A stretch of DNA of 64,000 nt, taken from contig CAWCVB010000002.1 of the NCBI GenBank assembly GCA_963798915.1, forward strand, positions 640,001 through 704,000, read 5' to 3'. Positions within the stretch are counted from its first letter, which is position 1, and every line of letters begins with the position of its first letter. Shown piece after piece: positions 35,162-48,945 of this stretch. The notes under the pieces were generated by a model that searched no databases, was not told the origin of the DNA, and was given only the letters and a program-made list of their open reading frames with translations. The DNA is from an uncultured Gemmatimonadales bacterium (GTDB lineage: Bacteria; Gemmatimonadota; Gemmatimonadetes; Gemmatimonadales; GWC2-71-9). Both the position numbers and the translations under genes were made by a program.

Positions 35162-36100
35162 ATGAGAACAGGCAGTCTTGCGGCAGCGATCGTTACGCTT
35201 GCGGCAGCGCCGCTCACCGCCCAGCAGGGCACCTCCGCCGCGCTGGTCCTGCGGCTGGCGGCCATCCCGGCCCCCCTTGGCTACGAGAAGCGCCTGGCCG
35301 ACACGCTCGCCGCTCTCCTGCCGCGCGCGACGCTCGACCGCGCCGGCAACGTCATTGTGACGCTCGGGAGCGGGCAACCCCGGCGCATGATCGCGTGCCC
35401 AATGGATGAGCCGGGCTGGGTGGTTGGCGGCATTCGGGAGGATGGCTACCTGACCGTTCGGCGCCTGCCTGGTCGCACACCCGCACTGTTCGACCAGCAG
35501 GCCGAAGGACAGCGCATCACCCTGCTCGGCACCCATGGCGACTTGCCTGGCGTGGTGGGCGTCCGCTCCGTACATCTGACGCGCGGCCGGGCCAGCAGCG
35601 ACAGTCCGTTCACCGCGGATGACGCTTTTGTGGATGTGGGCGCCAGTTCAGCGGACGAGGCCCGGGCACTTGGAGTCCGAGTCACCACCCCCTTCGTCCT
35701 CAGCAAGGCCCCGCTCCGCTATGGCGCCAACCTCGCCGCGGCACCGTCCATCGGCACCAGGGCGGCCTGCGCCGCCCTGGTCCGGGCGGCTTCGGCCCGG
35801 TCCCGGGGCACGGTCGTGCTCGCGTTCGTGGTGGAGCAGGGCCTCTCTGCACGCGGGCTGCTCGCCGCCGCAACCATGCACGGGCCCTTCGCCGAGACCC
35901 TGATCCTCGGTGCCGCGCCCGGCGACAGCGCCGTCCATGCTGATTCGCTGCCCCGCCTCCGTCAGGGAGCGGGGCTCGGCCACGTCAGGGTGTGGCGCCT
36001 TCGCGATCGATTCGATGGCTGGGCGGTGGAAACCGTGGCGCTGGACGACGTGGACCTGCTCCAAGCGCGCTTGCGCGCGTGGATCGGGGGCGCGCCATGA
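35162..36100 (+). CDS. M42 (TET) peptidase homolog lacking metal ligands; signal peptide
   Basis: M42 fold motifs (DRAGNV, FVDVGASS) present, but CPMDE, SIGTR and VEQG replace AHxDE, DDR and EE. Confidence 0.8.
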   Translation: MRTGSLAAAIVTLAAAPLTAQQGTSAALVLRLAAIPAPLGYEKRLADTLAALLPRATLDRAGNVIVTLGSGQPRRMIACPMDEPGWVVGGIREDGYLTVRRLPGRTPALFDQQAEGQRITLLGTHGDLPGVVGVRSVHLTRGRASSDSPFTADDAFVDVGASSADEARALGVRVTTPFVLSKAPLRYGANLAAAPSIGTRAACAALVRAASARSRGTVVLAFVVEQGLSARGLLAAATMHGPFAETLILGAAPGDSAVHADSLPRLRQGAGLGHVRVWRLRDRFDGWAVETVALDDVDLLQARLRAWIGGAP

Positions 36101-37182
36101 CTCGCTTTGGACTGACAGCCATGATGCTCGCAAGCGTCGTGTCATCGCTCGCCGGGCAGGGTGCTCCCGTGAATGAGGCCGAGTCGGTGCTCCGGACGCT
36201 GGTGGAGAGCTACGGGCCGTCCGGCGCCGAAGCGCCGGTGCGAGACGCCGTGAAGCGATTGCTGCCGTCCGGCCTGCATACCGAAACGGACAGTGCAGGC
36301 AATCTGTGGGTGCGCTTTGGCCGGGGGCCGTCCCCCACGGTGTTCGTGGCACATCTCGACGAGATCGGCTGGCGCGTCACGGACATCAATGCCGACGGCA
36401 CGCTCTCGCTGGAGCGCCTTGGCGGATTCTTCCCCTCGCTCTATGAAGGGAAACCGGCGCTGATCCACACGCCGGCGGGCCCGGTCAGCGCCGTCTTCAT
36501 GCCACGTGATTCGGTTGGCCGGCGACCAGACCGGACCCCGGAGGCGATCCGGGTGGATCCAGGCACCGGTTCTGCCGCAGCCAGCCGCCAGAAGGGCATC
36601 GCCGTCGGCAGTACCGTGACCATGCCCAAGTCGTATCAGCGGCTCGCCGGCACCCGGGCAACCGGACGTTCCTTCGATGACCGGGTCGGCTGCACCGCGC
36701 TGATCCTGGCCGCGCGGCGCCTCGCCGACCGCCCGCCGGCACATCCGGTGGTGTTCATCTGGAGTGTGCGCGAAGAGGTGGGCCTCGAAGGTGCCGCCGT
36801 CGCGGCCGATGCCCTGGGTGTCGGTGTCTCCCGGGTGCACGCAGTGGATACCTTTGTCTCCGCCGACGCGCCGCTGGAACTTCCGGCCTACGGGCTCGCG
36901 CCCCTGGGGGCGGGCGCGGTGATCCGGGCCGTAGACAACAGCAACGTGGCGCCCGCCGCGCTGGTGGACTCGGTACTTGCCCTGGCAGCGCGTGAGGAGA
37001 TTCCCCTCCAGTTCGGCGCCACCAGTGGCGGCAACGACGGATCGGTCTTCGCGCCATGGGGAGTGCCGGACATTCCGCTGGCGTGGCCACTGCGCTACTC
37101 GCATTCGCCAGTCGAGGTGGTGGACCTCAAGGATGTGGTGGCACTGGGCCGGCTGGTGGAGGCGCTGGCGCGCCAGGAGTAA
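36097..37182 (+). CDS. M42-family metallo-aminopeptidase; signal peptide
   Basis: AHLDEIG, SFDDRVG, REEVG, AVDT, GGND, YSHSPVE; ATGA overlap with upstream gene. Confidence 0.9.
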   Translation: MTRFGLTAMMLASVVSSLAGQGAPVNEAESVLRTLVESYGPSGAEAPVRDAVKRLLPSGLHTETDSAGNLWVRFGRGPSPTVFVAHLDEIGWRVTDINADGTLSLERLGGFFPSLYEGKPALIHTPAGPVSAVFMPRDSVGRRPDRTPEAIRVDPGTGSAAASRQKGIAVGSTVTMPKSYQRLAGTRATGRSFDDRVGCTALILAARRLADRPPAHPVVFIWSVREEVGLEGAAVAADALGVGVSRVHAVDTFVSADAPLELPAYGLAPLGAGAVIRAVDNSNVAPAALVDSVLALAAREEIPLQFGATSGGNDGSVFAPWGVPDIPLAWPLRYSHSPVEVVDLKDVVALGRLVEALARQE

Positions 37183-37220
37183 GCGGCCCGCGAGCCGCGA
37201 CTTGCGACATCCCGATCCCG

Positions 37221-37238
37221 TCTGCATATTTATGCATT
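37221..37238 (+). promoter_or_regulatory. ARG box (ArgR operator)
   Basis: tcTGCATATTTATGCAtt palindrome fits WNTGNATWWWWATNCANW; abuts the argG ATG; argR ends the operon. Confidence 0.85.
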
Positions 37239-38465
37239 ATGCAGAAACGCCCGATTGTCGCCCTCGCCTTCTCCGGCGGCCTGGATACCTCCTACTGCGT
37301 CCCTGTTCTCGCCGAGGCGGGCTACGACGTCCACACCGTCTTCGTCAACACGGGCGGCGCCTCCGCCGCCGACCGGGAGGCCATTGACCGCCAGGCCCGC
37401 GCGGTCGGCGCGGTCCAGCACCATGAAGTCGATGCCCGCGAAGCGGTGTTCGATCGCTTTGTCCGTTTTCTGATCCAGGGCAACGTGCTCCGCGGTGAGG
37501 TCTACCCGCTGTCCGTTGCCGCCGAGCGCACCCAGCAGGCCATGTCCGTCATCGGCATCGCGCGCGCCGTCGGCGCACGGGCGGTGGCGCATGGTTCCAC
37601 CGGCGCCGGCAACGACCAGATCCGCTTTGACATCGCCCTTCGGGTGCTGGCTCCGGAACTCGCCATCATCACGCCCATTCGCGAGCAGGCGGTCAGGCGT
37701 GAGGAATCCATCGCCTATCTCGAGGTGCGGGGCCTTCCGGTGCCGGCCCGGGCATCAGCGTACTCCATCAATCGCGGGCTCTGGGGCACCACCTGGGGCG
37801 GCGGCTGGACCCACGACACCTGGGCTGGCCCGCCGCCCGAATTGATCGAGCCACCTGCCGACGCGCCAGCACCGACCGAACTGGAGTTGGGCTGGGACCG
37901 GGGACTACCGGTGACGCTCGATGGAGCCAACCTGGCGGGGGCCGAACTGGTCGACCGTCTGGGTGCCATCGCCGAGTCGTACGGCATCGGCCGCTCGATT
38001 CACGTCGGCGAAACCGCGCTTGGCATCAAGGGTCGGATCGGATTCGAGGCGGGTGCCGCGCTGCTGCTGATCGGGGCGCACCGCGAGCTGGAGAAGCTGG
38101 TGCTCACTCGCTGGCAGGCGTTCTGGAAGGATCAGCTGGGCCGTTTCTATGGTGACCGGCTGCACGAGGGGCAGTACTTCGATCCGGCGCTGCGCGACAT
38201 CGAGGCGATGGTCACCAGCTCACAGCAGCGCGTCAGCGGCGAGACCCGAGTGCGCCTTTGGCCCGGCCGGTTTCAGGTGGTCGGTACCCGCAGTCCGTAC
38301 TCCATGATGGACCCGGGCGTCGCGACGTACGGCGAGGAGAACCGGCTCTGGACCGGTGAGGAAGCCCGCGACTTTGCGCGGGTATCGGCCATTCCGTCCT
38401 TGCTGGCCGTGCGTGCGGCCGAGCACAGCAAGGCGGCTGGGGCGGAGGCGACATCATGGTCGTGA
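37239..38465 (+). CDS. argG: Argininosuccinate synthase
   Basis: ALAFSGGLDTS, AHGSTGAGNDQIRF, GIKGRIGFE. Confidence 0.95.
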   Translation: MQKRPIVALAFSGGLDTSYCVPVLAEAGYDVHTVFVNTGGASAADREAIDRQARAVGAVQHHEVDAREAVFDRFVRFLIQGNVLRGEVYPLSVAAERTQQAMSVIGIARAVGARAVAHGSTGAGNDQIRFDIALRVLAPELAIITPIREQAVRREESIAYLEVRGLPVPARASAYSINRGLWGTTWGGGWTHDTWAGPPPELIEPPADAPAPTELELGWDRGLPVTLDGANLAGAELVDRLGAIAESYGIGRSIHVGETALGIKGRIGFEAGAALLLIGAHRELEKLVLTRWQAFWKDQLGRFYGDRLHEGQYFDPALRDIEAMVTSSQQRVSGETRVRLWPGRFQVVGTRSPYSMMDPGVATYGEENRLWTGEEARDFARVSAIPSLLAVRAAEHSKAAGAEATSWS

Positions 38466-39547
38466 CCACGCGCGTCCGGCTGGATCGAATCGCGTCCAGC
38501 ACCCGCAATGCCCAGCTGGCTTCCGAAGTGATTATCGGGAACGAAATCGTGGCGCAGGAAGGCTACGTGCTGGCGGTGCGCATCCTGGCCGACAAGGCCA
38601 GCTACAACACGCTCGAAGACCTGAGCGGGCGCATGGTCTCGCTGCGCGGGGGAGACGTCATCGCGGGTGTGCTGGGTGCGCGCCGGGCACTGCGCGGGTA
38701 CGCCGGCGAGGTGCCCCGGCACGTCGCTGCGGGCGACACCATCCAGGTGCTCAATCTCGGCGGCATCCTGGGGCGCTGCACCTCGGAAAATCCCGACATA
38801 GGTCCGCCCTTCGATGCCGAGGTGCTGGGCGCCGTGCTGACCTTTCCGGCGTTGGGTGACCGGGTGGGCCGGCCGGCCCACATCCGCGACCGCGCGGTTC
38901 CGCCGGCCGATCGCCTGGAGAGCAGGGTGCCGGTCGTCTACGTCGCGGGCACCTGCATGAACGCCGGGAAGACGGTCGCTGCAACCGAGCTCGTGCGCGG
39001 GCTCGCGCGGGGCGGGCTCAAGGTGGCAGCCGCCAAGCTGACCGGAGTCTCGCTGATGCGCGACGCGCTGTCGATGCAGGATGCCGGCGCGTTGTCGGCG
39101 CTCACGTTCAACGATGTGGGAATTGCAACCACGCATCCGGGCGTGACGGTGGCCACAGCCAAGGGCGTCTTCAACCGGCTGGCAGCGAGCAAGCCTGATG
39201 TCATCGTTGCCGAGCTGGGCGACGGCATCCTGGGCGAATACGGCGTACAGGATATTCTGGCGGACCCGGAGCTGGCCGCGATCGGCGCCGCCTGGGTCAT
39301 GGCCGCTCCCGACCCGGTCGCCTGCTGGGGTGCTGTGGAACTGATGCGCCGCCAGTTCGGCCTGCCGGTCACGGTGATTACCGGACCGGCCACCGACAAT
39401 GACGTGGGCCGGAGCTACATCCGCGGCTCCCTCGGGTTGCCGGCGCACAACGCCCGTCGTGATGCCGCGGGGCTCCTGGCGGCGGTGCGCGAGAGCCTCG
39501 ACGCGTGGGTTGCGCCGGAGCCGACCACGGCCGGGGCCGAGTCGTGA
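38456..39547 (+). CDS. DUF1611-like P-loop protein in the arg operon; candidate N-acylglutamate synthase
   Basis: VAGTCMNAGKT P-loop, AAAKLTG, VIVAELGDG; overlaps argG by 10 nt and argC by GTGA. The CDS is confident; the function is inferred. Confidence 0.8.
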   Translation: MVVTTRVRLDRIASSTRNAQLASEVIIGNEIVAQEGYVLAVRILADKASYNTLEDLSGRMVSLRGGDVIAGVLGARRALRGYAGEVPRHVAAGDTIQVLNLGGILGRCTSENPDIGPPFDAEVLGAVLTFPALGDRVGRPAHIRDRAVPPADRLESRVPVVYVAGTCMNAGKTVAATELVRGLARGGLKVAAAKLTGVSLMRDALSMQDAGALSALTFNDVGIATTHPGVTVATAKGVFNRLAASKPDVIVAELGDGILGEYGVQDILADPELAAIGAAWVMAAPDPVACWGAVELMRRQFGLPVTVITGPATDNDVGRSYIRGSLGLPAHNARRDAAGLLAAVRESLDAWVAPEPTTAGAES

Positions 39548-40593
39548 CCCAGGCCCTGCGCGTGGCGGTTGTCGGAGCCGCGGGTTATGCAGGAGGCGAG
39601 TTGCTTCGCCTGCTGTTGCAGCATCCCCACGTGGGGGAAGTGCTGGCGACGAGCCGCAGCCAGGCGGGCAAGCCCATTGCCGACGTCCATCCTGGTCTCG
39701 CACCACTCACCGAGGCTCGCTTCTCGGGCTTCTCGCCGGGAGAAGCGGCCGATGGCAGGGACGTGGTCTTCCTCGCCCTGGAGCATGGTGAGTCATCCCG
39801 GCTTGCGAGTGAGGTCTTTGCCGCCGGTCCTGGCCTGGTCATCGACCTCGCCGCGGATTTCCGGATCCAGGAGCCGCGTCTCTACGAGCAGTTCTACGGT
39901 CCGCATGCCGCGCCCGACTATGTGCACCGCTTTGCCTACGGTCTGGCCGACGTCGCCGGCACCGGGCTTCGCGGCGCCGCCGCGATCGCGGCACCGGGTT
40001 GTTTTGCGACTGCCGCACAGCTGGCGCTCTGGCCCATCGCACGGGCCGGACTGGCGTGCGAACCCGCCATGTTCGCCATCACCGGATCCAGCGGCGCCGG
40101 CGTGCATCCGCGTCCGACCACGCATCATCCCGCCCGGGCCAACAACGTGTTTGCCTACGCCGTGTTGTCGCACAGGCACGAGGCCGAAGTGCTGGCAAGC
40201 TGGCGCACCTGGACCGGCCGGAGCGACGCCCACGCACGGCTGATGGTCCACGCGGGACCATTCGTCCGCGGGATCTACCTGACGCTGCATGCCCGACTGT
40301 CCGCTGCCGACGCGTCGCGGCTCGAGGCCGCACTGCCACTCTATCGCGAGGCGTACGCCGGCCGGCCCTTTGTGCGAGTGCTTGACCGGGTTCCCGACCT
40401 CACCCAGGCGGTGGGTACCAATTTCGCCTTTATCCACGCCGCCAGGTCCGCGGATGGCCGGGAGCTTCAGGTCGTGGTCGCCGAAGACAACCTGGTGAAG
40501 GGGGCGGGCGGCCAGGCCATCCAGGCCATGAACCTGGCCCTGGGTCTCGATGAGACTGCCGGACTCGAGTCGGTCGGATTCCATCCATGCTGA
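39544..40593 (+). CDS. argC: N-acyl-gamma-glutamyl-phosphate reductase
   Basis: VVGAAGYAGGEL, DLAADFR, APGCFAT, DNLVKGAGGQAIQAMN. Confidence 0.95.
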   Translation: MTQALRVAVVGAAGYAGGELLRLLLQHPHVGEVLATSRSQAGKPIADVHPGLAPLTEARFSGFSPGEAADGRDVVFLALEHGESSRLASEVFAAGPGLVIDLAADFRIQEPRLYEQFYGPHAAPDYVHRFAYGLADVAGTGLRGAAAIAAPGCFATAAQLALWPIARAGLACEPAMFAITGSSGAGVHPRPTTHHPARANNVFAYAVLSHRHEAEVLASWRTWTGRSDAHARLMVHAGPFVRGIYLTLHARLSAADASRLEAALPLYREAYAGRPFVRVLDRVPDLTQAVGTNFAFIHAARSADGRELQVVVAEDNLVKGAGGQAIQAMNLALGLDETAGLESVGFHPC

Positions 40594-41738
40594 GCACGGC
40601 CGGCGTGGGTGCGTTGCTACCGGTCTATGCCCAGATGCCGGTGAAGCCAGTCACGGGTCGTGGGTCATGGGTCATGGATGAAGATGGCAACCGCTGGCTC
40701 GATGCCTACGGAGGCCACGCGGTGGCGGCCACCGGCCACAGCCATCCGGCAGTGGTGAAGGCGATCAGCGAGCAGGCCGAAGCACTCCTGTTCTACTCCT
40801 CGGTGCTGCCCCATCCGAACCGGGAGCGGCTGGCGGCCGAGCTGGTGCGGCGCATGCCGGCGGGCTTGTCGCATGTGTTCTTCGCCAACTCCGGAGCGGA
40901 AGCCAACGAATCCGCCATGCTGCTGGCGCGGAAAGTGACCGGTCGCTCGCGCATGCTCTCGGTCGCTGGCGGGTGGCACGGTCGTACCATCGCGTGTCTC
41001 TCCGTCACCGACGGCGAGAAGTACGAGGCCGGTGCTCGCGCCGCCGGCATGCCGCTGTCGGTCAAGGTCGGGTTCAACGATGTCAGCGCGCTCGATGAGC
41101 TGATTGACGACTCGGTCGCCGCGGTCATCGTGGAACCAGTGCAGGGAATGAAGGGCGCCCGTGACTGCGCTCCCGAATTTCTGGACGCTGCGCGTCAGTT
41201 GACTGCCGCGCGTGGTTCCCTGCTCATTTTCGACGAGATTCAGTGTGGCGTGGGCCGGACCGGCGCATTCACCGCCGCCGAGTCATTCGGGGTCGTGCCC
41301 GATCTCCTGACCATGGCCAAGGGACTCGGTTCCGGGCTGCCGATCAGTGCGGTCGTGGCGACTGCAGCAATTGCCGGTCAGGTCAAGGTGGGGGACCTGG
41401 GCAGCACCTTCGGTGGCGGGCCGGTGCCCTGCGCCGCCGCCCTCGCCACGCTTCAGGTTATCGATGACGAGGACCTGCTGCTCAACGTGCGCAGGATGGC
41501 ACAGCGGCTTCGCGCTGGCGCATTGCGGGCGGGAGTGCAGGCGGTGCAGGGCCGGGGCCTGCTGCTTGGACTTCGGCTCGATCGGCCGGCGACTGACGTG
41601 CAGCGCGCGCTGTTCCAGCGACGGATTCTGACCGGCACGTCCACCGATCCCGCCGTGCTTCGGCTGATGCCCCCATTGTCATTTTCCGCCGACGAGGCGG
41701 ACCTGCTGATCGCGACGCTGGTCGAGGTCCTCGCATGA
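40587..41738 (+). CDS. argD: N-acylornithine aminotransferase (class III PLP)
   Basis: NSGAEANE, WHGRT, FDEIQCGVGRTG, AKGLGSG, STFGG. Confidence 0.9.
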   Translation: MLSTAGVGALLPVYAQMPVKPVTGRGSWVMDEDGNRWLDAYGGHAVAATGHSHPAVVKAISEQAEALLFYSSVLPHPNRERLAAELVRRMPAGLSHVFFANSGAEANESAMLLARKVTGRSRMLSVAGGWHGRTIACLSVTDGEKYEAGARAAGMPLSVKVGFNDVSALDELIDDSVAAVIVEPVQGMKGARDCAPEFLDAARQLTAARGSLLIFDEIQCGVGRTGAFTAAESFGVVPDLLTMAKGLGSGLPISAVVATAAIAGQVKVGDLGSTFGGGPVPCAAALATLQVIDDEDLLLNVRRMAQRLRAGALRAGVQAVQGRGLLLGLRLDRPATDVQRALFQRRILTGTSTDPAVLRLMPPLSFSADEADLLIATLVEVLA

Positions 41739-42748
41739 GCGGCCGCGACTTCCTGGCGATGGAGGACTGGGGCAGCGAGGGCGTGGAATCCCTTCTCTCG
41801 CTGGCGGCGCGCATCAAGCGCGGGGAGGTGACGGGTGGACTCGAGCGCAAGATCCTGGCCGCCATCTTCATGGACCCGAGCCTGCGCACCCGGTCCAGCT
41901 TCGAGGCCGGCATGTTCCTTCACGGCGGGCACGCGATCATCCTGGAGCCGGGGAAGGGAAGCTGGGCCCTGGAAACGGAACATGGCGTCGTGATGGACGG
42001 TGCCTCGGTCGAGCATGTGATCGAGGCGGCACGGGTGCTCAGCCGTTATGCCGATGCGCTCGCGGTCCGGGCATTTCCGAAGGGCGGGACCTGGCAAGCG
42101 GCGCGCGAGGACCGGGTCATCCGGGACTTCGCACGCCATGCGTCGAAGCCGGTCATCAACATGGAGAGCACGCGCCGCCATCCCTGCCAGGGGCTGGCCG
42201 ACGCCATGACCTTGCGCGAACACCTGGGCACCACCCGGCGGAAGCGGTTCGTCCTCGCCTGGGCGTGGCACCCCAGGGCGCTTCCGACGGCCGTGCCCGC
42301 CAGCGCCGCCATTGCGGCCGCGATGCTGGGAATGGATGTGGTGATTGCCCGGCCCCCGGGCTATCAGCTCGACCCCGATGACATGGCCACCATCGCGCGC
42401 TGCGCCGATGAGGCGGGCGGCAGTGTGACGGAATCGGAGGAGCTCGACGCGGCCCTGGAGGGTGCCGACGCCGTGTACGTCAAGTCATGGGGCGCGCTCT
42501 CCGCATTTGGCCGACCGGAGGCCGAGGCCGTGCTGCGCGAACCGCACCGTGGCTGGCGCATGACCGCCGGCCGCCAGCACCTGAGCCGTGGCGGTGCGGG
42601 TATCGTCATGCACTGCCTGCCGGTGCGTCGGAACGTCGAGATCGATGATGCCGTGCTCGACGGCCCGCACTCGGTGGTCGTGGATGAAGCGGAGAACCGC
42701 CTGCATGTACAGCGGGCGTTGTTGCTCGAGATACTCGCTGAACGCTGA
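41735..42748 (+). CDS. argF: N-acylornithine carbamoyltransferase (ArgF'; predicted succinyl-specific)
   Basis: SLRTR, GSWALE...MDGASVEH, HPCQ, WAWHPRALPTAV, HCLPVRRN (AOTCase/SOTCase signatures). Confidence 0.9.
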   Translation: MSGRDFLAMEDWGSEGVESLLSLAARIKRGEVTGGLERKILAAIFMDPSLRTRSSFEAGMFLHGGHAIILEPGKGSWALETEHGVVMDGASVEHVIEAARVLSRYADALAVRAFPKGGTWQAAREDRVIRDFARHASKPVINMESTRRHPCQGLADAMTLREHLGTTRRKRFVLAWAWHPRALPTAVPASAAIAAAMLGMDVVIARPPGYQLDPDDMATIARCADEAGGSVTESEELDAALEGADAVYVKSWGALSAFGRPEAEAVLREPHRGWRMTAGRQHLSRGGAGIVMHCLPVRRNVEIDDAVLDGPHSVVVDEAENRLHVQRALLLEILAER

Positions 42749-42823: not shown

Positions 42824-43786
42824 TTGTCACCCAAGGAGCTCACCCTGTCACTGGATCCAACTCAGGGCATTGCCGGCCTCAAGGGCGCGCTGCGCTACGT
42901 ACGCGCCTATCGCGACCAGGTGTTCGTGGTCAAGCTGGGCGGCGACGTGCTGCGGGATGCCGACCTGCTCGACCAGGTCGCCACTCAGCTGGCCTTGCTC
43001 CACTCGCTGAGCATCCGTCTCGTCGTCGTCCATGGCGGCGGGCCCCAGGCGTCGGCGCTGATGCGCCGCCTGGGCCAGGAGCCCGTCATGGTCGGCGGCC
43101 GCCGGGTCACCGACGATGCGGCGCTGGAAGTCGTCAAGATGGTGTACGCCGGGTTGCTGAACACCGATCTCGTTTCCGCGCTGCGCGGGCATCGGGTGCA
43201 GCCGGTCGGCTTGAGCGGAGTGGATGCCGACCTGCTCACCGCCCATCGGCGGCCCCCGGTGGATGTGGTGGACGATGAGGGACGCAGCCGCCTGGTGGAC
43301 TTCGGCCATGTTGGCGACCTGGACCGGGTGGATGTCCGTGTCCTGGTCACGCTCATGGATGCGCGGTTCGTGCCGGTGGTGGCGAGCCTCGCGGGAGACG
43401 ACGACGGCAATGTGTTCAACGTCAACGCCGACACCGTGGCCGAAGCACTCGCCACGGCGCTGCGGGCCCAGAAACTGATCTTCCTGACCGGCGTGCCTGG
43501 TGTGCTTCGGGATCGCAACGATCCTTCCACGCTCGTGACATTCGCCGATCCGGACGACCTGATCGGCCTGATGCAGAGTGGCGCTCTGGCCGGAGGCATG
43601 CGGCCCAAGGTGGAGGCCTGTATCCGCGCCGCCACTGGCGGCGTCGAGCGGACCCACATCGTGGATGGCCGTCAGCCCGACGCGTTGCTGACCGAGGTCT
43701 TCACTGGTGCTGGTTGCGGGACCATGATCGTCGGCAGGAAGGAGAAGGCGACCTACCTTGGCGTTGACCTGGCCGCCCGAGATTGA
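42824..43786 (+). CDS. argB: N-acylglutamate kinase
   Basis: VVKLGG, VVHGGGPQ, GRRVTD, NVNADT, GGMRPKV; start approximate. Confidence 0.93.
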   Translation: MSPKELTLSLDPTQGIAGLKGALRYVRAYRDQVFVVKLGGDVLRDADLLDQVATQLALLHSLSIRLVVVHGGGPQASALMRRLGQEPVMVGGRRVTDDAALEVVKMVYAGLLNTDLVSALRGHRVQPVGLSGVDADLLTAHRRPPVDVVDDEGRSRLVDFGHVGDLDRVDVRVLVTLMDARFVPVVASLAGDDDGNVFNVNADTVAEALATALRAQKLIFLTGVPGVLRDRNDPSTLVTFADPDDLIGLMQSGALAGGMRPKVEACIRAATGGVERTHIVDGRQPDALLTEVFTGAGCGTMIVGRKEKATYLGVDLAARD

Positions 43787-44834
43787 GCTGCTCCGCAGCC
43801 TGGTCGCGACTCCTTCGGTCAGCGGGACCGAGGCGGCGGCAGGCGAGGTCGTGGCGGTGCAGGCCCGCGAGTGGGGACTCGACGCGGTGCGCGATGCGCA
43901 TGGGGTGCGCGTGGAAGTTCGCGGCGGGCTCCCGGGGCCGACCCTGGCCCTGGTGTCGCACCTCGACACCGTGCCTCCGGGCGAGGGGTGGACTCGCGAT
44001 CCCTACCGGGCCACCATCGAGGCCGGGCGGCTGTACGGTCGTGGCGCGGGCGATGCGAAAGGGCCGGTTTCAGCGATGCTCGCTGCCGCCTGGGACGTGG
44101 CGCGCGAGCAGCGCCTGGCCCGCGGGCGCTTGCTGGTCCTGCTGGGCTATGGCGAGGAGACACGGCACACGACCATGCCCGCCGCGGTAGCCGGCGCAGG
44201 CCCCATTGACGCGGCCATCATCGGCGAGCCAACCAATCTGGACTTTGCGGTGGCCCAGCGCGGCCTCATGATGGTGGACCTTGTGGCTGCGGGCGATCAG
44301 CGGCATGCGGGGTACGCCGCGGCTGATGGCGAGTTCACCAACGCGGCGCTGGTGCTGGCGGCCGACCTGCTCCGGCTGGGCCAGCTCTTCCATGAACGGG
44401 CGCACCCGATGCTCGGTTTTCCTACCATCACTCCAACCATGCTCGAAGCCGGGGTAAGCCGGAACGTGACTCCGCCATCCGCTCGAGCCGTGCTCGACAT
44501 CAGGAGTACGCCGACATGGCCTCACGCTGAAATCGCCGAGCGTCTTCGGCGCGAGCTTCGGTCGGAGGTGGCCGTCACCTCGGACCGGCTGGTTCCCTGC
44601 GAGACGCCGGAGAGTTCGCGACTGCTTGGCGTGATGCGACAGGCCCGCGCGGCCTCCCGCTCGTACGGCAGCCCGACCTGCTCGGACTGGGTATTCCTGC
44701 GCGATCACGACACCGTGAAGTGCGGGCCCGGCACCAGCCGTCGCTCGCATACGCCCGACGAATTCATTGACCTGCATGAGGTGAGTGCCGCGCGAGACCT
44801 CTACGCACGGGTCGCGGAGAGTTACCTCCAGTGA
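43758..44834 (+). CDS. argE: M20 deacylase, ArgE-like (N-acylcitrulline/ornithine deacylase)
   Basis: SHLDTV, GRGAGDAKG, GEE, GEPT, YGSPTCSD, GPGTSRRSHTPDE. Confidence 0.85.
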   Translation: MALTWPPEIELLRSLVATPSVSGTEAAAGEVVAVQAREWGLDAVRDAHGVRVEVRGGLPGPTLALVSHLDTVPPGEGWTRDPYRATIEAGRLYGRGAGDAKGPVSAMLAAAWDVAREQRLARGRLLVLLGYGEETRHTTMPAAVAGAGPIDAAIIGEPTNLDFAVAQRGLMMVDLVAAGDQRHAGYAAADGEFTNAALVLAADLLRLGQLFHERAHPMLGFPTITPTMLEAGVSRNVTPPSARAVLDIRSTPTWPHAEIAERLRRELRSEVAVTSDRLVPCETPESSRLLGVMRQARAASRSYGSPTCSDWVFLRDHDTVKCGPGTSRRSHTPDEFIDLHEVSAARDLYARVAESYLQ

Positions 44835-46198
44835 GACGCCCGGAAATGCTCTGGTCTCCCGGGGCCGAACCCAATGTGCAGATGCTGGCGTACACAGTGG
44901 GCGATGATCCGGTGTGGGATGCGGCGCTGCTCCGCTGGGACGTGCTGGGCAGTCTGGGGCACGTGGCTGGGCTCAAGGCATCGTCGCTGCTGAGCGAACG
45001 GGAGTATCGCAGTCTTCGCGCCGGACTCCGCGCGGCGCTCAAGGCGGTGGATGCCGGCCGCCTGACCATTGGCCGGAACCATGAGGACGCCCACTCTGCC
45101 GTCGAGGCGTGGCTGACTGGCCGCAGCAGGGTGGCGGGCGAGCGGTTGCATACCGGACGTTCGCGCAACGACCAGATCGCCGTGGACCTGCGGCTGTTCC
45201 TGAAGCACACCCTGCTCGAGATTCATGCCTCGGCGAGCTCCTTGGCCATGGCGCTGGTGCGGTTCGGCGTTGGCCATCGCGCCGTCCTGTGGCCGGGCTA
45301 CACCCATCAGCGCCGGGCAATGCCGTCCTCGGCGGCGCTCTGGGCCGGCGCACTCGCCGAAGGTCTGCTCGACACCCTGGAAGACCTGCCGACCCTCTGG
45401 CGGCGGGTGGACCGCTCGCCGCTGGGCAGCGCCGCTGGTTACGGCGTGCCGCTTCCGCTCAAGCGCGAGGCGGCAGCGCGGGCCCTCGGCTTCGCCGGGC
45501 TGGACCGGAACGTGGCCAGTGTGCAGAACAGCCGGGGCAAGCTCGAGGCCTCGGTGCTGGCCTGGTGTGGCCAGCTGGGTCACGACCTGTCCAAGCTGGC
45601 GAGCGACGTCATGCTCTTCACAGCGGAGGAATTTGGCTACCTCATCCTGCCGCCGGCCCTGGCCACCGGTTCCAGCATCATGCCCCATAAGCGGAACCCG
45701 GATCTCTTCGAATTGACCCGCGGGCGGGCGGCCGCGTTGGACGGCGATCTGGTCACCATGCTGCTGCTCAAGGGCAAGCTCGGCACGGGCTATCACCGCG
45801 ACTTTCAGTTGCTCAAGGAGCCGCTCTTCCGGGGATTGCACCGCACCCAGGAGATGCTGGCCATGATGACCACCGCCGTGCCGATGCTGAAGGTGGACCC
45901 GGAGCGCTGTCGCGCTGCGCTGGCTGGCGGTGCACTCGCCACGGACGAAGTGATGCGGCGGGTCGAAGCGGGCGTTCCCTTCCGCCGGGCCTACCGCGAG
46001 GTGGCCGCTGCCATCCGTCGGGGCGAAGCATTCGAGGCGCCGAGCCCGCGGCAGATCGTCGCGCGCCGGCGCTCAACCGGCGGCCTCGGCAATGTGGGGC
46101 TGGCCGAGGCGGCGGCCCGGATCCGCGCGGCGGAACGCTGGCAGCGTGCCGAGCGAAGGCGATTCATGACGGCGATGCGCCGTCTGGCTGGGAGCTGA
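44831..46198 (+). CDS. argH: Argininosuccinate lyase
   Basis: LHTGRSRNDQ, PGYTHQRRA, TGSSIMPHKRNPD. Confidence 0.95.
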   Translation: MRRPEMLWSPGAEPNVQMLAYTVGDDPVWDAALLRWDVLGSLGHVAGLKASSLLSEREYRSLRAGLRAALKAVDAGRLTIGRNHEDAHSAVEAWLTGRSRVAGERLHTGRSRNDQIAVDLRLFLKHTLLEIHASASSLAMALVRFGVGHRAVLWPGYTHQRRAMPSSAALWAGALAEGLLDTLEDLPTLWRRVDRSPLGSAAGYGVPLPLKREAAARALGFAGLDRNVASVQNSRGKLEASVLAWCGQLGHDLSKLASDVMLFTAEEFGYLILPPALATGSSIMPHKRNPDLFELTRGRAAALDGDLVTMLLLKGKLGTGYHRDFQLLKEPLFRGLHRTQEMLAMMTTAVPMLKVDPERCRAALAGGALATDEVMRRVEAGVPFRRAYREVAAAIRRGEAFEAPSPRQIVARRRSTGGLGNVGLAEAAARIRAAERWQRAERRRFMTAMRRLAGS

Positions 46199-46202
46199 GA
46201 CG

Positions 46203-46661
46203 GTGAGCAGCGATCGCCGCAAACGCCAGCTCAAGATCCTCGAGATGATCGAGACCCGGGCATTGCGTACCCAGGAGGAGGTGGCGGACGCACTCGCATC
46301 GGAAGGCTGGGACGTGACCCAGTCCAGCGTGAGCCGGGATATCGCAGCGCTTGGATTGGTCAAGGTGGGCGGGGCATACCGGCGTCCCGCTGCGATCGCT
46401 GTCAATGCGGACGATCCCGACGAGCGGCGTCTGGCCGAGGGTGTGCTGACGGCCGAACCGGCGGGTGACGGACTGGTGGTGCTGCACACGCCTCCGGGCG
46501 AGGCGAGTCGCGTGGGGGCGGCACTCGACCGGCTGGCCTGGAATGAGATCGTGGGAACCATTGCCGGTGACGATACCATTTTTCTCGCCACCAACGGCCG
46601 GGCCGCGCAGCGGCGACTGCTGCGGCTGGTGGGGCGATTTGTGAGCACCGGGCGAGCTTGA
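46203..46661 (+). CDS. argR: Arginine repressor
   Basis: TQEEV, VTQSSVSRDI, GTIAGDDT. Confidence 0.95.
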   Translation: MSSDRRKRQLKILEMIETRALRTQEEVADALASEGWDVTQSSVSRDIAALGLVKVGGAYRRPAAIAVNADDPDERRLAEGVLTAEPAGDGLVVLHTPPGEASRVGAALDRLAWNEIVGTIAGDDTIFLATNGRAAQRRLLRLVGRFVSTGRA

Positions 46662-46724: not shown

Positions 46725-48416
46725 TTACTCCTTCCGCCACCCTGGTCCCCGCAGGAACCGCCCCGGCGTCGCGCCGGTATGCTCACCGTCCTTGAGCACC
46801 TGCATGCCGTTCACGAACACGTCCCGGACGCCGGTCGAGTACTGGTGTGGCTTCTCGAAGGTCGCATGGTCAATGATGGTTGCCGGATCGAAGATGACCA
46901 CGTCCGCGAAGTACCCGGGAGCGAGCCGGCCCCGTCGGACAAGCTTGAGATTGGCAGCCGGGAGCGACGTAAGCTTCCGAATCGCCTCGGTCAGCGGCAA
47001 AGCGTGCTGCTCCCGCACGTAGCGGCCGAGCAGCCGGGCCACGTTGCCATAGGCGCGCGGATGGGTACCGGTTCGAAGGAAGACTCCCTCGGTGGCATAG
47101 CTTCCCGCGTCCGACCCGAAGCTCACCCACGGGATCGCCACCTTCTTCCTGACATTCTCTTCTGACATGGTGAAGAAGACACAGCCGACGCGGCTGTCGT
47201 CCTGGATGACCAGGTCCATGGCAGTGGCCTCTGGTGAGGTGCCGCGCAGCCGTGCTACTTCGCCCAGGGTCTTGCCAATCAGGTAGCGCAACGAATCCTG
47301 GCGGAAGCTCACGAGGAGGATGCCGTCCGGGCCGCCCGCGTTGGCAAACGAATTGTCGTAACCGTCCGCGCCACCTCGCATTTCCCGCACGAGGCGCGCA
47401 CGAATGGCGGGATCGCGAAGCCGGGCGACCCACGCATCGTGACCGCCCTCCTGCACCCAGGTTGGCATGGTGGCGTCGAGACCCGTGGAGCTGGCAGGGT
47501 ACGTATACATGTCGGCCGTGATGGCGAGGCCGGCCCGGCGCGCTGAGTCCACCTTGGCGACAATGGAATCGAGTTTGCCCCAGTTGGCCCGGCCCGAAGC
47601 CTTGAGGTGATAGATTTCGGCGGGCACGCCTGCTGCGTCGGCGATGTGAATCAGTTCGTCCAGGGCGTCGAGCACGTGCGAGCCCTCGTCGCGCATGTGC
47701 GAGATGTACATCCCGTGATACTCACCGGCCGCCCGCGCCAATCCGACCAGCTCCTCGGTCGTGGCGTAGTTGTCCGGGGCGTAGATCAGCGAGGAACCGA
47801 CGCCAAGCGCCCCCTCGCGCATCGCCTGGCGCACCAGCTCCTTCATGCGGTCCAGCTCTGCCGGCGTGGCGGGCCGGTTGGCGTAGCCGACCTCGTGGAT
47901 CCTGACGGTGCCCGCACCGACGAACGAGGCCACGTTGGTCGAGATGCCGCGCCGCTCGAGATATTCCAGGTACTCGCCGAGGGTGGTCCAGGGTATTGCA
48001 TACTTGATGTCCTGCTGGCGGGCGATGGCCTCGGCGCGCATCGAATCGGTCAGCGGGCCCATCGAGCTGCCTTCGCCCATGACCTCGAGCGTTACGCCCT
48101 GGCGGATCCCGCCCTGCGAGCGCCCGTCCTGGATCAGGGAAACATTTGCCCAGCTCAGCATGTTGATGAAGCCGGGCGCCACGGCCATGCCCCTGGCATC
48201 GACTTCGGTGGCCGCGCTGCCGGGTGGCACCGGCCCCACAGCGGCAATGCTGTCGCCGATCAGGGCCACGTCGGTCATGACGGGTGGCGATCCGCTGCCG
48301 TCGTACACGGTGCCGCCCCGGATAACGACGTCGTAGCGATGCGCCGCCGCGCTGGTGCCACAACCTGCGATTCCCAGAAGCAGCCCCCCGGACGCCGCCA
48401 GGGCGACGGTGCGCAC
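46725..48416 (-). CDS. N-acyl-D-amino-acid deacylase family amidohydrolase, lipoprotein
   Basis: GGTVYDGSG, APGFIN, SHMRDE, YHLK, GSDAG, HPRAYG; GTG start at 48416 with GGAG. Confidence 0.88.
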   Translation of the reverse strand: MRTVALAASGGLLLGIAGCGTSAAAHRYDVVIRGGTVYDGSGSPPVMTDVALIGDSIAAVGPVPPGSAATEVDARGMAVAPGFINMLSWANVSLIQDGRSQGGIRQGVTLEVMGEGSSMGPLTDSMRAEAIARQQDIKYAIPWTTLGEYLEYLERRGISTNVASFVGAGTVRIHEVGYANRPATPAELDRMKELVRQAMREGALGVGSSLIYAPDNYATTEELVGLARAAGEYHGMYISHMRDEGSHVLDALDELIHIADAAGVPAEIYHLKASGRANWGKLDSIVAKVDSARRAGLAITADMYTYPASSTGLDATMPTWVQEGGHDAWVARLRDPAIRARLVREMRGGADGYDNSFANAGGPDGILLVSFRQDSLRYLIGKTLGEVARLRGTSPEATAMDLVIQDDSRVGCVFFTMSEENVRKKVAIPWVSFGSDAGSYATEGVFLRTGTHPRAYGNVARLLGRYVREQHALPLTEAIRKLTSLPAANLKLVRRGRLAPGYFADVVIFDPATIIDHATFEKPHQYSTGVRDVFVNGMQVLKDGEHTGATPGRFLRGPGWRKE

Positions 48417-48447
48417 CAATTCACTCCACAACGAGGCAGAATCGGTC

Positions 48448-48945
48448 ATGGCCATCAGAGACGGACTCCTTGGAGAATTCGATCACGAGATGAGGAATAC
48501 CCGGAGGACGCTCGAGCGGGTGCCCTTCGAGAAGGCGGACTGGCGGCCGCACGGCAAGTCCCCTACGCTGGGTGGCCTCGCCGTGCATCTGGCGATGCTC
48601 CCGCGCCTGGCCGTGCCGGTGCTGACCGCGACGGAACTGGATATCACCACTGCCGGCAGCAAGGACGCGGCACCGGACAGCACGACGGCCCTGTTGCAGC
48701 GCTTCGACGCCTGCACAGCGGCCGCCCGGACGGCGCTGCTCGGACTGGATGACGACGATATCCGCACGCCCTGGACCTTGCGGGTCGGTGAGCGCGAACT
48801 CTGGACGATGCCCCGGCTCGCGGCCTACCGTGCGTTTGTGATGAATCATCTGGTGCATCACCGGGCACAGATTGGCGTGTACCTCCGGCTCAACGACGTG
48901 GCGGTCCCGGCCATCTATGGCCCGTCGGCCGATGAGGCGGTCTGA
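48448..48945 (+). CDS. DinB-family protein
   Basis: WRPHGKS, LAVHLA, HLVHHRAQIGVYLR, YGPSADE. Confidence 0.9.
   Translation: MAIRDGLLGEFDHEMRNTRRTLERVPFEKADWRPHGKSPTLGGLAVHLAMLPRLAVPVLTATELDITTAGSKDAAPDSTTALLQRFDACTAAARTALLGLDDDDIRTPWTLRVGERELWTMPRLAAYRAFVMNHLVHHRAQIGVYLRLNDVAVPAIYGPSADEAV

Follow-up and report, generated by a model that had tools for sequence, protein, structure and literature searches.

We analysed a stretch of 64,000 nucleotides (nt) from an uncultured Gemmatimonadales bacterium (assembly GCA_963798915.1, here genome G000; contig CAWCVB010000002.1, positions 640,001 to 704,000). This whole stretch is called the window, and positions refer to it unless stated otherwise. 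The window harbors an arginine operon in which an open reading frame for a protein of 363 amino acids, here called X, lies between argG and argC, and this text deals with the function of X. The genes of the operon were assigned by Pfam/NCBIfam profile searches (Table 1). The gene order argG-X-argC-argD-argF'-argB-argE-argH-argR that an initial annotation of this DNA had given was confirmed, with argE recognized only as an argE-like M20 gene. The same annotation had described argB and argH as unfused and the operon as lacking ArgA, ArgJ, and GNAT proteins. Both genes are indeed unfused, and none of the 12 window proteins scanned matched a GNAT or ArgJ family.

The reading frame of X (38456-39547, plus strand) has no internal stops. 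As annotated before, its start overlaps the end of argG (38465) by 10 nt and its end overlaps the GTG start codon of argC (39544) within the sequence GTGA. The GC content by codon position is 0.73/0.52/0.85, and in comparison to five close loci 146-162 of about 200 differences per locus were located at third codon positions. Together, the codon-position GC and the third-position bias indicate a gene under selection. Homologues of X numbered 3796 among 8000 candidates scored, and its close relatives carry the name Gemmatimonadales. X is a real, conserved gene.

Table 1. Features of the arginine operon and of gene X (window positions; residue counts for X refer to 59 homologues)
Feature	Position	Strand	Description and basis
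Palindromic operator, probable ARG box	37223..37236	.	2 nt 5' of the inferred argG start
argG, argininosuccinate synthase	37239..38465	+	PF00764, PF20979, TIGR00032 above cut-off; start inferred at MQKR
X	38456..39547	+	two-domain protein, 363 aa; predicted N-succinylglutamate synthase, UniProt A0A127FCT3 family
X, N-terminal all-beta domain (residues 1-154)	38456..38917	+	conserved S14, E54, R76, P87; AF2 pLDDT 95.3
X, Walker A GTCMNAGKT (residues 165-173)	38948..38974	+	G171 and K172 59/59; T173 58 T + 1 S
X, K194, second Lys	39035..39037	+	22 residues past the P-loop Lys; 59/59; aligned with the BioD Lys of 'CKP..TG' (PDB 3fgn)
X, D203, candidate Mg ligand	39062..39064	+	57 D + 2 E of 59
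X, E253 of ELGDG, Walker B position	39212..39214	+	59/59; aligned with EGQGS of DUF1611
argC	39544..40593	+	TIGR01850 328.7 bits, cut-off 233.6
argD, class III aminotransferase	40587..41738	+	PF00202; top NCBIfam matches acetylornithine transaminase, under cut-offs
argF', N-acylornithine carbamoyltransferase	41735..42748	+	NF003384 419 bits, cut-off 288; Val92 codon 42008-42010; probably succinyl type
argB, unfused acylglutamate kinase	42824..43786	+	TIGR00761 above cut-off; AA_kinase sole domain, 320 aa; PDB matches are acetylglutamate kinases
argE-like M20 deacylase	43758..44834	+	PF01546, PF07687; TIGR01892 117.7 bits, under cut-off 297.7
argH, unfused	44831..46198	+	TIGR00838 281.4 bits, cut-off 279.5; Lyase_1, 455 aa
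argR	46203..46661	+	PF01316, PF02863 above cut-off

The genomic context of X was strongly conserved. X was flanked by arg genes in all 80 close loci (the best 80 of 458, 78-90% identical and, as close kin, not independent of each other), with argG on the 5' side in 79 and argC on the 3' side in 79; the two exceptions are due to a contig edge. In these loci the gene order of the window was kept as far as each contig extends. A second arrangement, argR-X-argC-argD-argB, was present at four loci and at a fifth, each in a genome more distant from the window. Here X stays beside the genes of the upper pathway, while argF', argE, argG, and argH lie outside this cluster; in two of the five genomes argG-argH follow it. 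X is therefore linked to the acylated, upper part of the pathway.

We searched 201 genomes of the phylum (200 that are at least 90% complete, and G000) for X, argC, ArgJ (PF01960), short ArgA (NF005840), long ArgA (TIGR01890), ArgF', and carB. X was found in 65 of the 201 genomes, all of which had argC. ArgJ was present in 64 genomes and short ArgA (E<=1e-20) in 71, neither of them in any of the 65 with X, and long ArgA was found in none of the 201. Among the 94 argC genomes without X, 79 showed a match to ArgJ or short ArgA. The remaining 15 had neither of them; two of these were opened and both showed LysW-type-like clusters. In the family of the window argC was present in 82 of 97 genomes: 56 of them carried X, and the other 26 carried ArgJ together with short ArgA, the latter at E<=8e-39 in 25 genomes and as a partial match in one. 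No ArgJ, long ArgA, or short ArgA was found in G000, which is 84.8% complete. Genomes with weak P-loop matches only (25, E>1e-8) were not counted as having X, and neither was G035, with a distant homologue that does not adjoin argC. The tallies include the unpublished genomes G082 (X), G200, and G175 (both ArgJ); without them the counts drop by one or two, and the outcome is unchanged. In G083 and G088 (loci L144, L145) the argC match resembles lysY of the LysW carrier pathway, and in G088 a LysW-like reading frame of 54 aa is followed by a LysX-like gene.

The initial annotation had regarded X as a non-orthologous replacement of ArgA, which implies that X is conserved in arg operons and that genomes with X do not keep argA or argJ. 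Both applied to the loci and genomes counted here, and the constant arg context (80 of 80) and the lack of co-occurrence (0 of 65) support such a replacement as the predicted role of X.

The AlphaFold2 (AF2) model of X reached a predicted local distance difference test (pLDDT) score of 96.5. According to the model and structure comparison, the C-terminal part (residues of about 155-350) folds as a SIMIBI P-loop domain. The best fold matches of this domain were 2g0t (Z 17.7), 2obn (16.6), BioD 1a82 (15.6), ApbC (15.5), and DgcN 7xrj (15.5); HypB, UreG, and MeaB have the same fold. Matches within 1 Z of each other were considered as tied, and the fold therefore cannot separate BioD from DgcN. 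For the N-terminal domain the best match among 48161 chains had a Z of 3.2 (LexA/lambda repressor C-domains), and there was no Foldseek match at E<=0.001; a missing structural match for this modelled domain does not prove a new fold. A PDB sequence search with X alone gave no meaningful match, and a search of the ESM Atlas gave only clusters that were unnamed or 'DUF1611 domain-containing'.

The motifs GTCMNAGKT (residues 165-173), AAAKLTG (K194), and VIVAELGDG (E253), which the initial annotation had listed, were all read in the translated frame, and the SIMIBI/BioD-class layout deduced from them there agrees with the fold comparison. Conservation was counted over 59 full-length diverse homologues (of 151 proteins; the alignment also held 18 closer relatives), and the P-loop residues, K194, D203, and E253 proved invariant or nearly so (Table 1). 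In SIMIBI ligases such a set of residues lets Mg-ATP donate a phosphoryl group to a carboxylate or carbamate, which is then attacked by an amine. For BioD, the P-loop Gly8-Thr16 and Lys37 are named in PMC8659263.

The DUF1611/BioD-class label given to X earlier applied in part. The C-terminal P-loop fold is indeed common to X and the DUF1611/DgcN proteins (Z 15.5-17.7, root-mean-square deviation (rmsd) 2.8-3.0 over 177-185 residues). X is nevertheless not a member of DUF1611 by profile: it reached 18.1 bits with PF07755 over residues 155-195 (cut-off 25), and NF041892 (DgcN) did not match X at E<=0.1. PF07755 matched 27 of 77 X homologues weakly (best E 1.3e-5). A profile-profile comparison (hhalign) aligned 188 columns of the C-domains with E 0.0002 and a probability of 47%; the alignment begins at residue 156 and leaves the N-domains unaligned. 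The modelled N-domain of X is all-beta, and no DUF1611 chain was among its matches at Z>=2. Further common traits are a nine-residue Walker A, a Glu-led Walker B and, provided that the prediction for X holds, the N-acylation of glutamate. Identity is only 12-16%, and the motifs differ. GK[T/S] and K194 are present in 59 of 59 X homologues, whereas all 15 DUF1611 loci used for the comparison (of 25) show GKM and lack a Lys at the position of K194, and DgcN 7xrj has GKMY. The DUF1611 motifs G[ST]DCxxGKM and TGQTG without the second Lys are not found in X. A separate, true DUF1611/DgcN-like gene is present in G000 (C5:473753; L127:1087-2154), flanked by a pspA-like gene and a gene for an ABC transporter; its NF041892 score was 285 bits (cut-off 480). 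Within the class, 44 of 61 genomes matched PF07755.

BioD resembles X in fold (1a82, rmsd 3.3, 182 residues aligned; best Foldseek match 3of5), in sequence profile (best match 3fgn, in which the P-loop and the second Lys align with those of X), and in having GK[T/S] in the P-loop plus a second Lys 22 residues on. It differs from X by a TIGR00347 score of 15.9 bits (cut-off 83.3), by the extra N-domain of 150 residues in X, and by the arg instead of bio context. CobQ/CbiA, CTP synthase, and formyl-tetrahydrofolate synthetase are related SIMIBI ligases that we grouped with BioD. ArgA (long TIGR01890, short GNAT NF005840) and ArgJ (PF01960) perform the pathway step predicted for X but have unrelated folds, and no GNAT or ArgJ domain was detected in X with Pfam/NCBIfam.

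Information on the acyl group came from ArgF'. Its Val92 was located by a gap-free alignment to the best PDB match 3l06 (a Xanthomonas-type enzyme), which likewise has V at this site, whereas the residue in 3m5c is E. Val was present at this position in 61 of 62 loci and His in one (locus L056, tblastn alignment). ArgF' with A, P, S, or V at position 92 is assigned to succinylated intermediates by a rule in the GapMind S1 text, which cites Shi 2007 (PMC13759103). Val92 and this rule therefore point to succinylated intermediates, and the X operon of G000 is probably succinyl-specific.

The initial annotation considered X a new candidate, but the family had already been predicted. In GapMind 2026 (PLoS Genet, PMC13759103; preprint bioRxiv 10.1101/2024.10.14.618325) the Steroidobacter protein A0A127FCT3 is proposed as an alternative N-succinylglutamate synthase, on grounds in common with ours: arg operon context, exclusion of ArgA, and the argument from position 92 of ArgF'. 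Transferase chemistry is deduced there from DgcN, and the comparison is with long ArgA only. ATP use, the N-terminal fold, the exclusion of ArgJ and short ArgA, and genomes without ArgF' are not discussed in the accessible text (PMC13759103). In a literature search of limited coverage we found no paper proposing ATP-dependent ligation for the family. The gene of plasmid pALF12 (357 codons) reads by eye GTCMEAGKT, KATG, and ELGDG, with a start like those of P0128 and P0347, and P0347, a Steroidobacteraceae protein, shares 48% identity with X across 341 aa. Because of these motifs and the identity to a Steroidobacteraceae protein of this type, rather than by direct alignment, X is assigned to the A0A127FCT3 family.

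Homologues of X also occur outside arginine operons and reveal a broader unnamed superfamily around it. Members of a sister subfamily precede ABC exporters in G035 (L093:8874-14173), where a CapA/MslH-like gene lies in between, and on plasmids of Sulfitobacter and Paracoccus (L149:6986-9756, L151:6890-9528), where they are annotated as 'DUF1611 domain-containing'. The Priestia megaterium plasmid NZ_CP085446 (L150:3715-12403) carries a phosphonate-peptide cluster with a 25%-identical homologue and genes for phosphoenolpyruvate mutase, a thiamine diphosphate-dependent decarboxylase, two ATP-grasp ligases, and OTC-like (ornithine carbamoyltransferase), M20, and LLM oxygenase proteins, with YqcI/YcgG nearby. 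It was not identified as the argolaphos cluster: the gene set differs, and the accessible part of the gene table in PMC8976061 lists no X-like protein.

We concluded, with a probability of roughly 0.78, that X is the missing first enzyme of arginine synthesis and makes N-succinyl-L-glutamate. This role is supported by position, conservation, the mutual exclusion with ArgA and ArgJ, the fold, and Val92 of ArgF'; the reaction itself is a prediction. X would open a linear succinylated pathway continued by ArgB, ArgC, ArgD, ArgF' (via N-succinylcitrulline), the ArgE-like deacylase, ArgG, and ArgH under control of ArgR. By the slightly favored ligase route, Mg-ATP would in the P-loop domain (K172, T173, K194, D203, E253) phosphorylate succinate to succinyl-phosphate, which would then be attacked by the alpha-amine of glutamate. 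The beta-domain probably helps to bind glutamate or a regulator, which is speculative.

Several observations weigh against this assignment. The profile compares whole operon types in related genomes that are not independent. The threshold for short ArgA was chosen after the data had been seen, and partial GNAT matches down to 5e-16 occur in X genomes. The exclusion covers ArgJ and long and short ArgA, and GNAT ArgA of the Bacteroides or Xanthomonas type is outside its reach (the PF04768 control was blank). G000 has 13 generic GNAT genes, and since it is 84.8% complete and lacks carB, absences in this genome alone prove little. DUF1611 proteins give the top fold matches of X, and the only one of them that has been studied (NF041892, PDB 7xrj) bears the name of an acetyltransferase. 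Homologues with 25-37% identity outside arg operons carry the same catalytic set, and the motifs therefore do not fix the substrate. Of the 65 X genomes, 54 had ArgF' and 11 did not, and the succinyl argument therefore does not extend to these 11. Five of them, near-closed and of the second operon type, all had a canonical OTC above cut-off; their ArgE-like M20 genes (E 1e-52 to 1e-64, under cut-off) were unlinked. The acyl group may thus vary among X lineages, and those without ArgF' may use another one. In the accessible GapMind material the evidence entry for the A0A127FCT3 family reads 'no', and the plasmid archive holds expression plasmids for the Steroidobacter gene and for E. coli argA, for which we found no result; the accessible passage of the strain table names no argA strain (PMC13759103).

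The chemistry of the predicted step was weighed between ligation and transfer, and both variants keep X as the first enzyme. Known ArgA enzymes use acyl-CoA (coenzyme A), and DgcN is said to use acetyl-CoA. X might perform the same step by acyl transfer from succinyl-CoA, as GapMind proposes from the analogy to DgcN; the P-loop would then bind the CoA pyrophosphate. The DUF1611 proteins and DgcN at the top of the fold matches and the alignment of 188 C-domain columns are in line with such a transfer, but the hhalign probability was low and the N-domains stayed unaligned, and X retains GK[T/S] together with the second Lys and the Asp, which fit catalysis with an Mg-bound nucleoside triphosphate, in place of the GKM without second Lys of DUF1611/DgcN. 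We regard CoA transfer as possible but well short of an even chance. The invariant GK[T/S], second Lys, Asp, and Glu of X, partly absent from DgcN, let us lean towards a BioD/CobQ-like ligation of succinate with ATP. This lean is only slight, because the sole characterized glutamate-acylating relative is named an acetyltransferase. In its most specific form, which we consider tentative and a little below even odds, X would be an N-ligase that joins succinate (or acetate) to L-glutamate with ATP and independently of CoA, composed of a BioD-type catalytic domain and an N-terminal beta-domain to which no solved structure is related; the acyl group may be a different one in lineages lacking ArgF'. 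The distant homologues near ABC exporters and in the phosphonate-peptide cluster would then be amide ligases, too, within the same superfamily.

Other roles would remove X from the first step. HypB, UreG, MeaB, and ApbC have its fold, one distant homologue likewise lies near an M20 gene, and the GNAT genes of G000 might include an unrecognized enzyme that makes acylglutamate, with X as an accessory SIMIBI NTPase for metal delivery to the M20 deacylase or as an activator of ArgB. Such a role is improbable: X stays with argC-D-B where argE is outside the cluster, and it would leave unexplained that short ArgA and ArgJ occur in 26 of 26 argC genomes of the family without X and in 0 of 56 with X. 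X could also return the acyl group of N-acylornithine or N-acylcitrulline to glutamate as an ArgJ-like recycler, or act as a deacylase. X and ArgJ never co-occur, the argR-X-argC-D-B clusters lack argE in genomes with a canonical OTC (5 of 5), and S. denitrificans is without a clear ArgE according to the preprint (bioRxiv 10.1101/2024.10.14.618325). Since the operon of the window has its own argE-like gene, the five second-type genomes hold the unlinked M20 genes mentioned above, and X does not have an Ntn-hydrolase fold, we consider this role very improbable. BioD phosphorylates a carbamate, and carAB is absent from the operon and carB was not found in G000, which might point to X as a supplier of carbamoyl phosphate. 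This was ruled out almost completely, since 198 of the 201 genomes have carB, among them every one of the 64 X genomes other than G000; its absence from G000 is an assembly gap.

Upstream of the operon, the palindrome TGCATATTTATGCA is a single match in the window, compared to 0.03 expected. With at most two mismatches it was located directly 5' of the argG start in 70 of 71 loci scored and in none of 284 control windows; in the sole exception argG lies within the operon. This conserved palindrome is the probable ARG box downstream of which the initial annotation had placed X; binding of ArgR is presumed from the consensus. In most loci a TTG[C/T]G-like hexamer lies about 20 nt 5' of the palindrome (window 37202-37241), and the ATG of argG follows 0-2 nt 3' of it without a Shine-Dalgarno sequence. 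This layout possibly reflects a leaderless transcript whose -10 region is overlapped by the operator; a simple promoter scan found no sigma-70 site. Two tandem M42 aminopeptidase genes (35162-37182) precede argG directly on the same strand, and the gene for an Amidohydrolase_3 protein, presumably D-aminoacylase-like, converges on argR (46725-48455, minus strand).

As a first enzyme, X would close the first-step gap of arginine synthesis in 65 of 201 genomes of the phylum, and its family occurs in 109 genera according to GapMind (PMC13759103). Since this role had been published as a prediction before, the surprise is modest. The ligase, if true, would represent a new entry reaction into arginine synthesis, distinct from ArgA, ArgJ, and the LysW carrier route.

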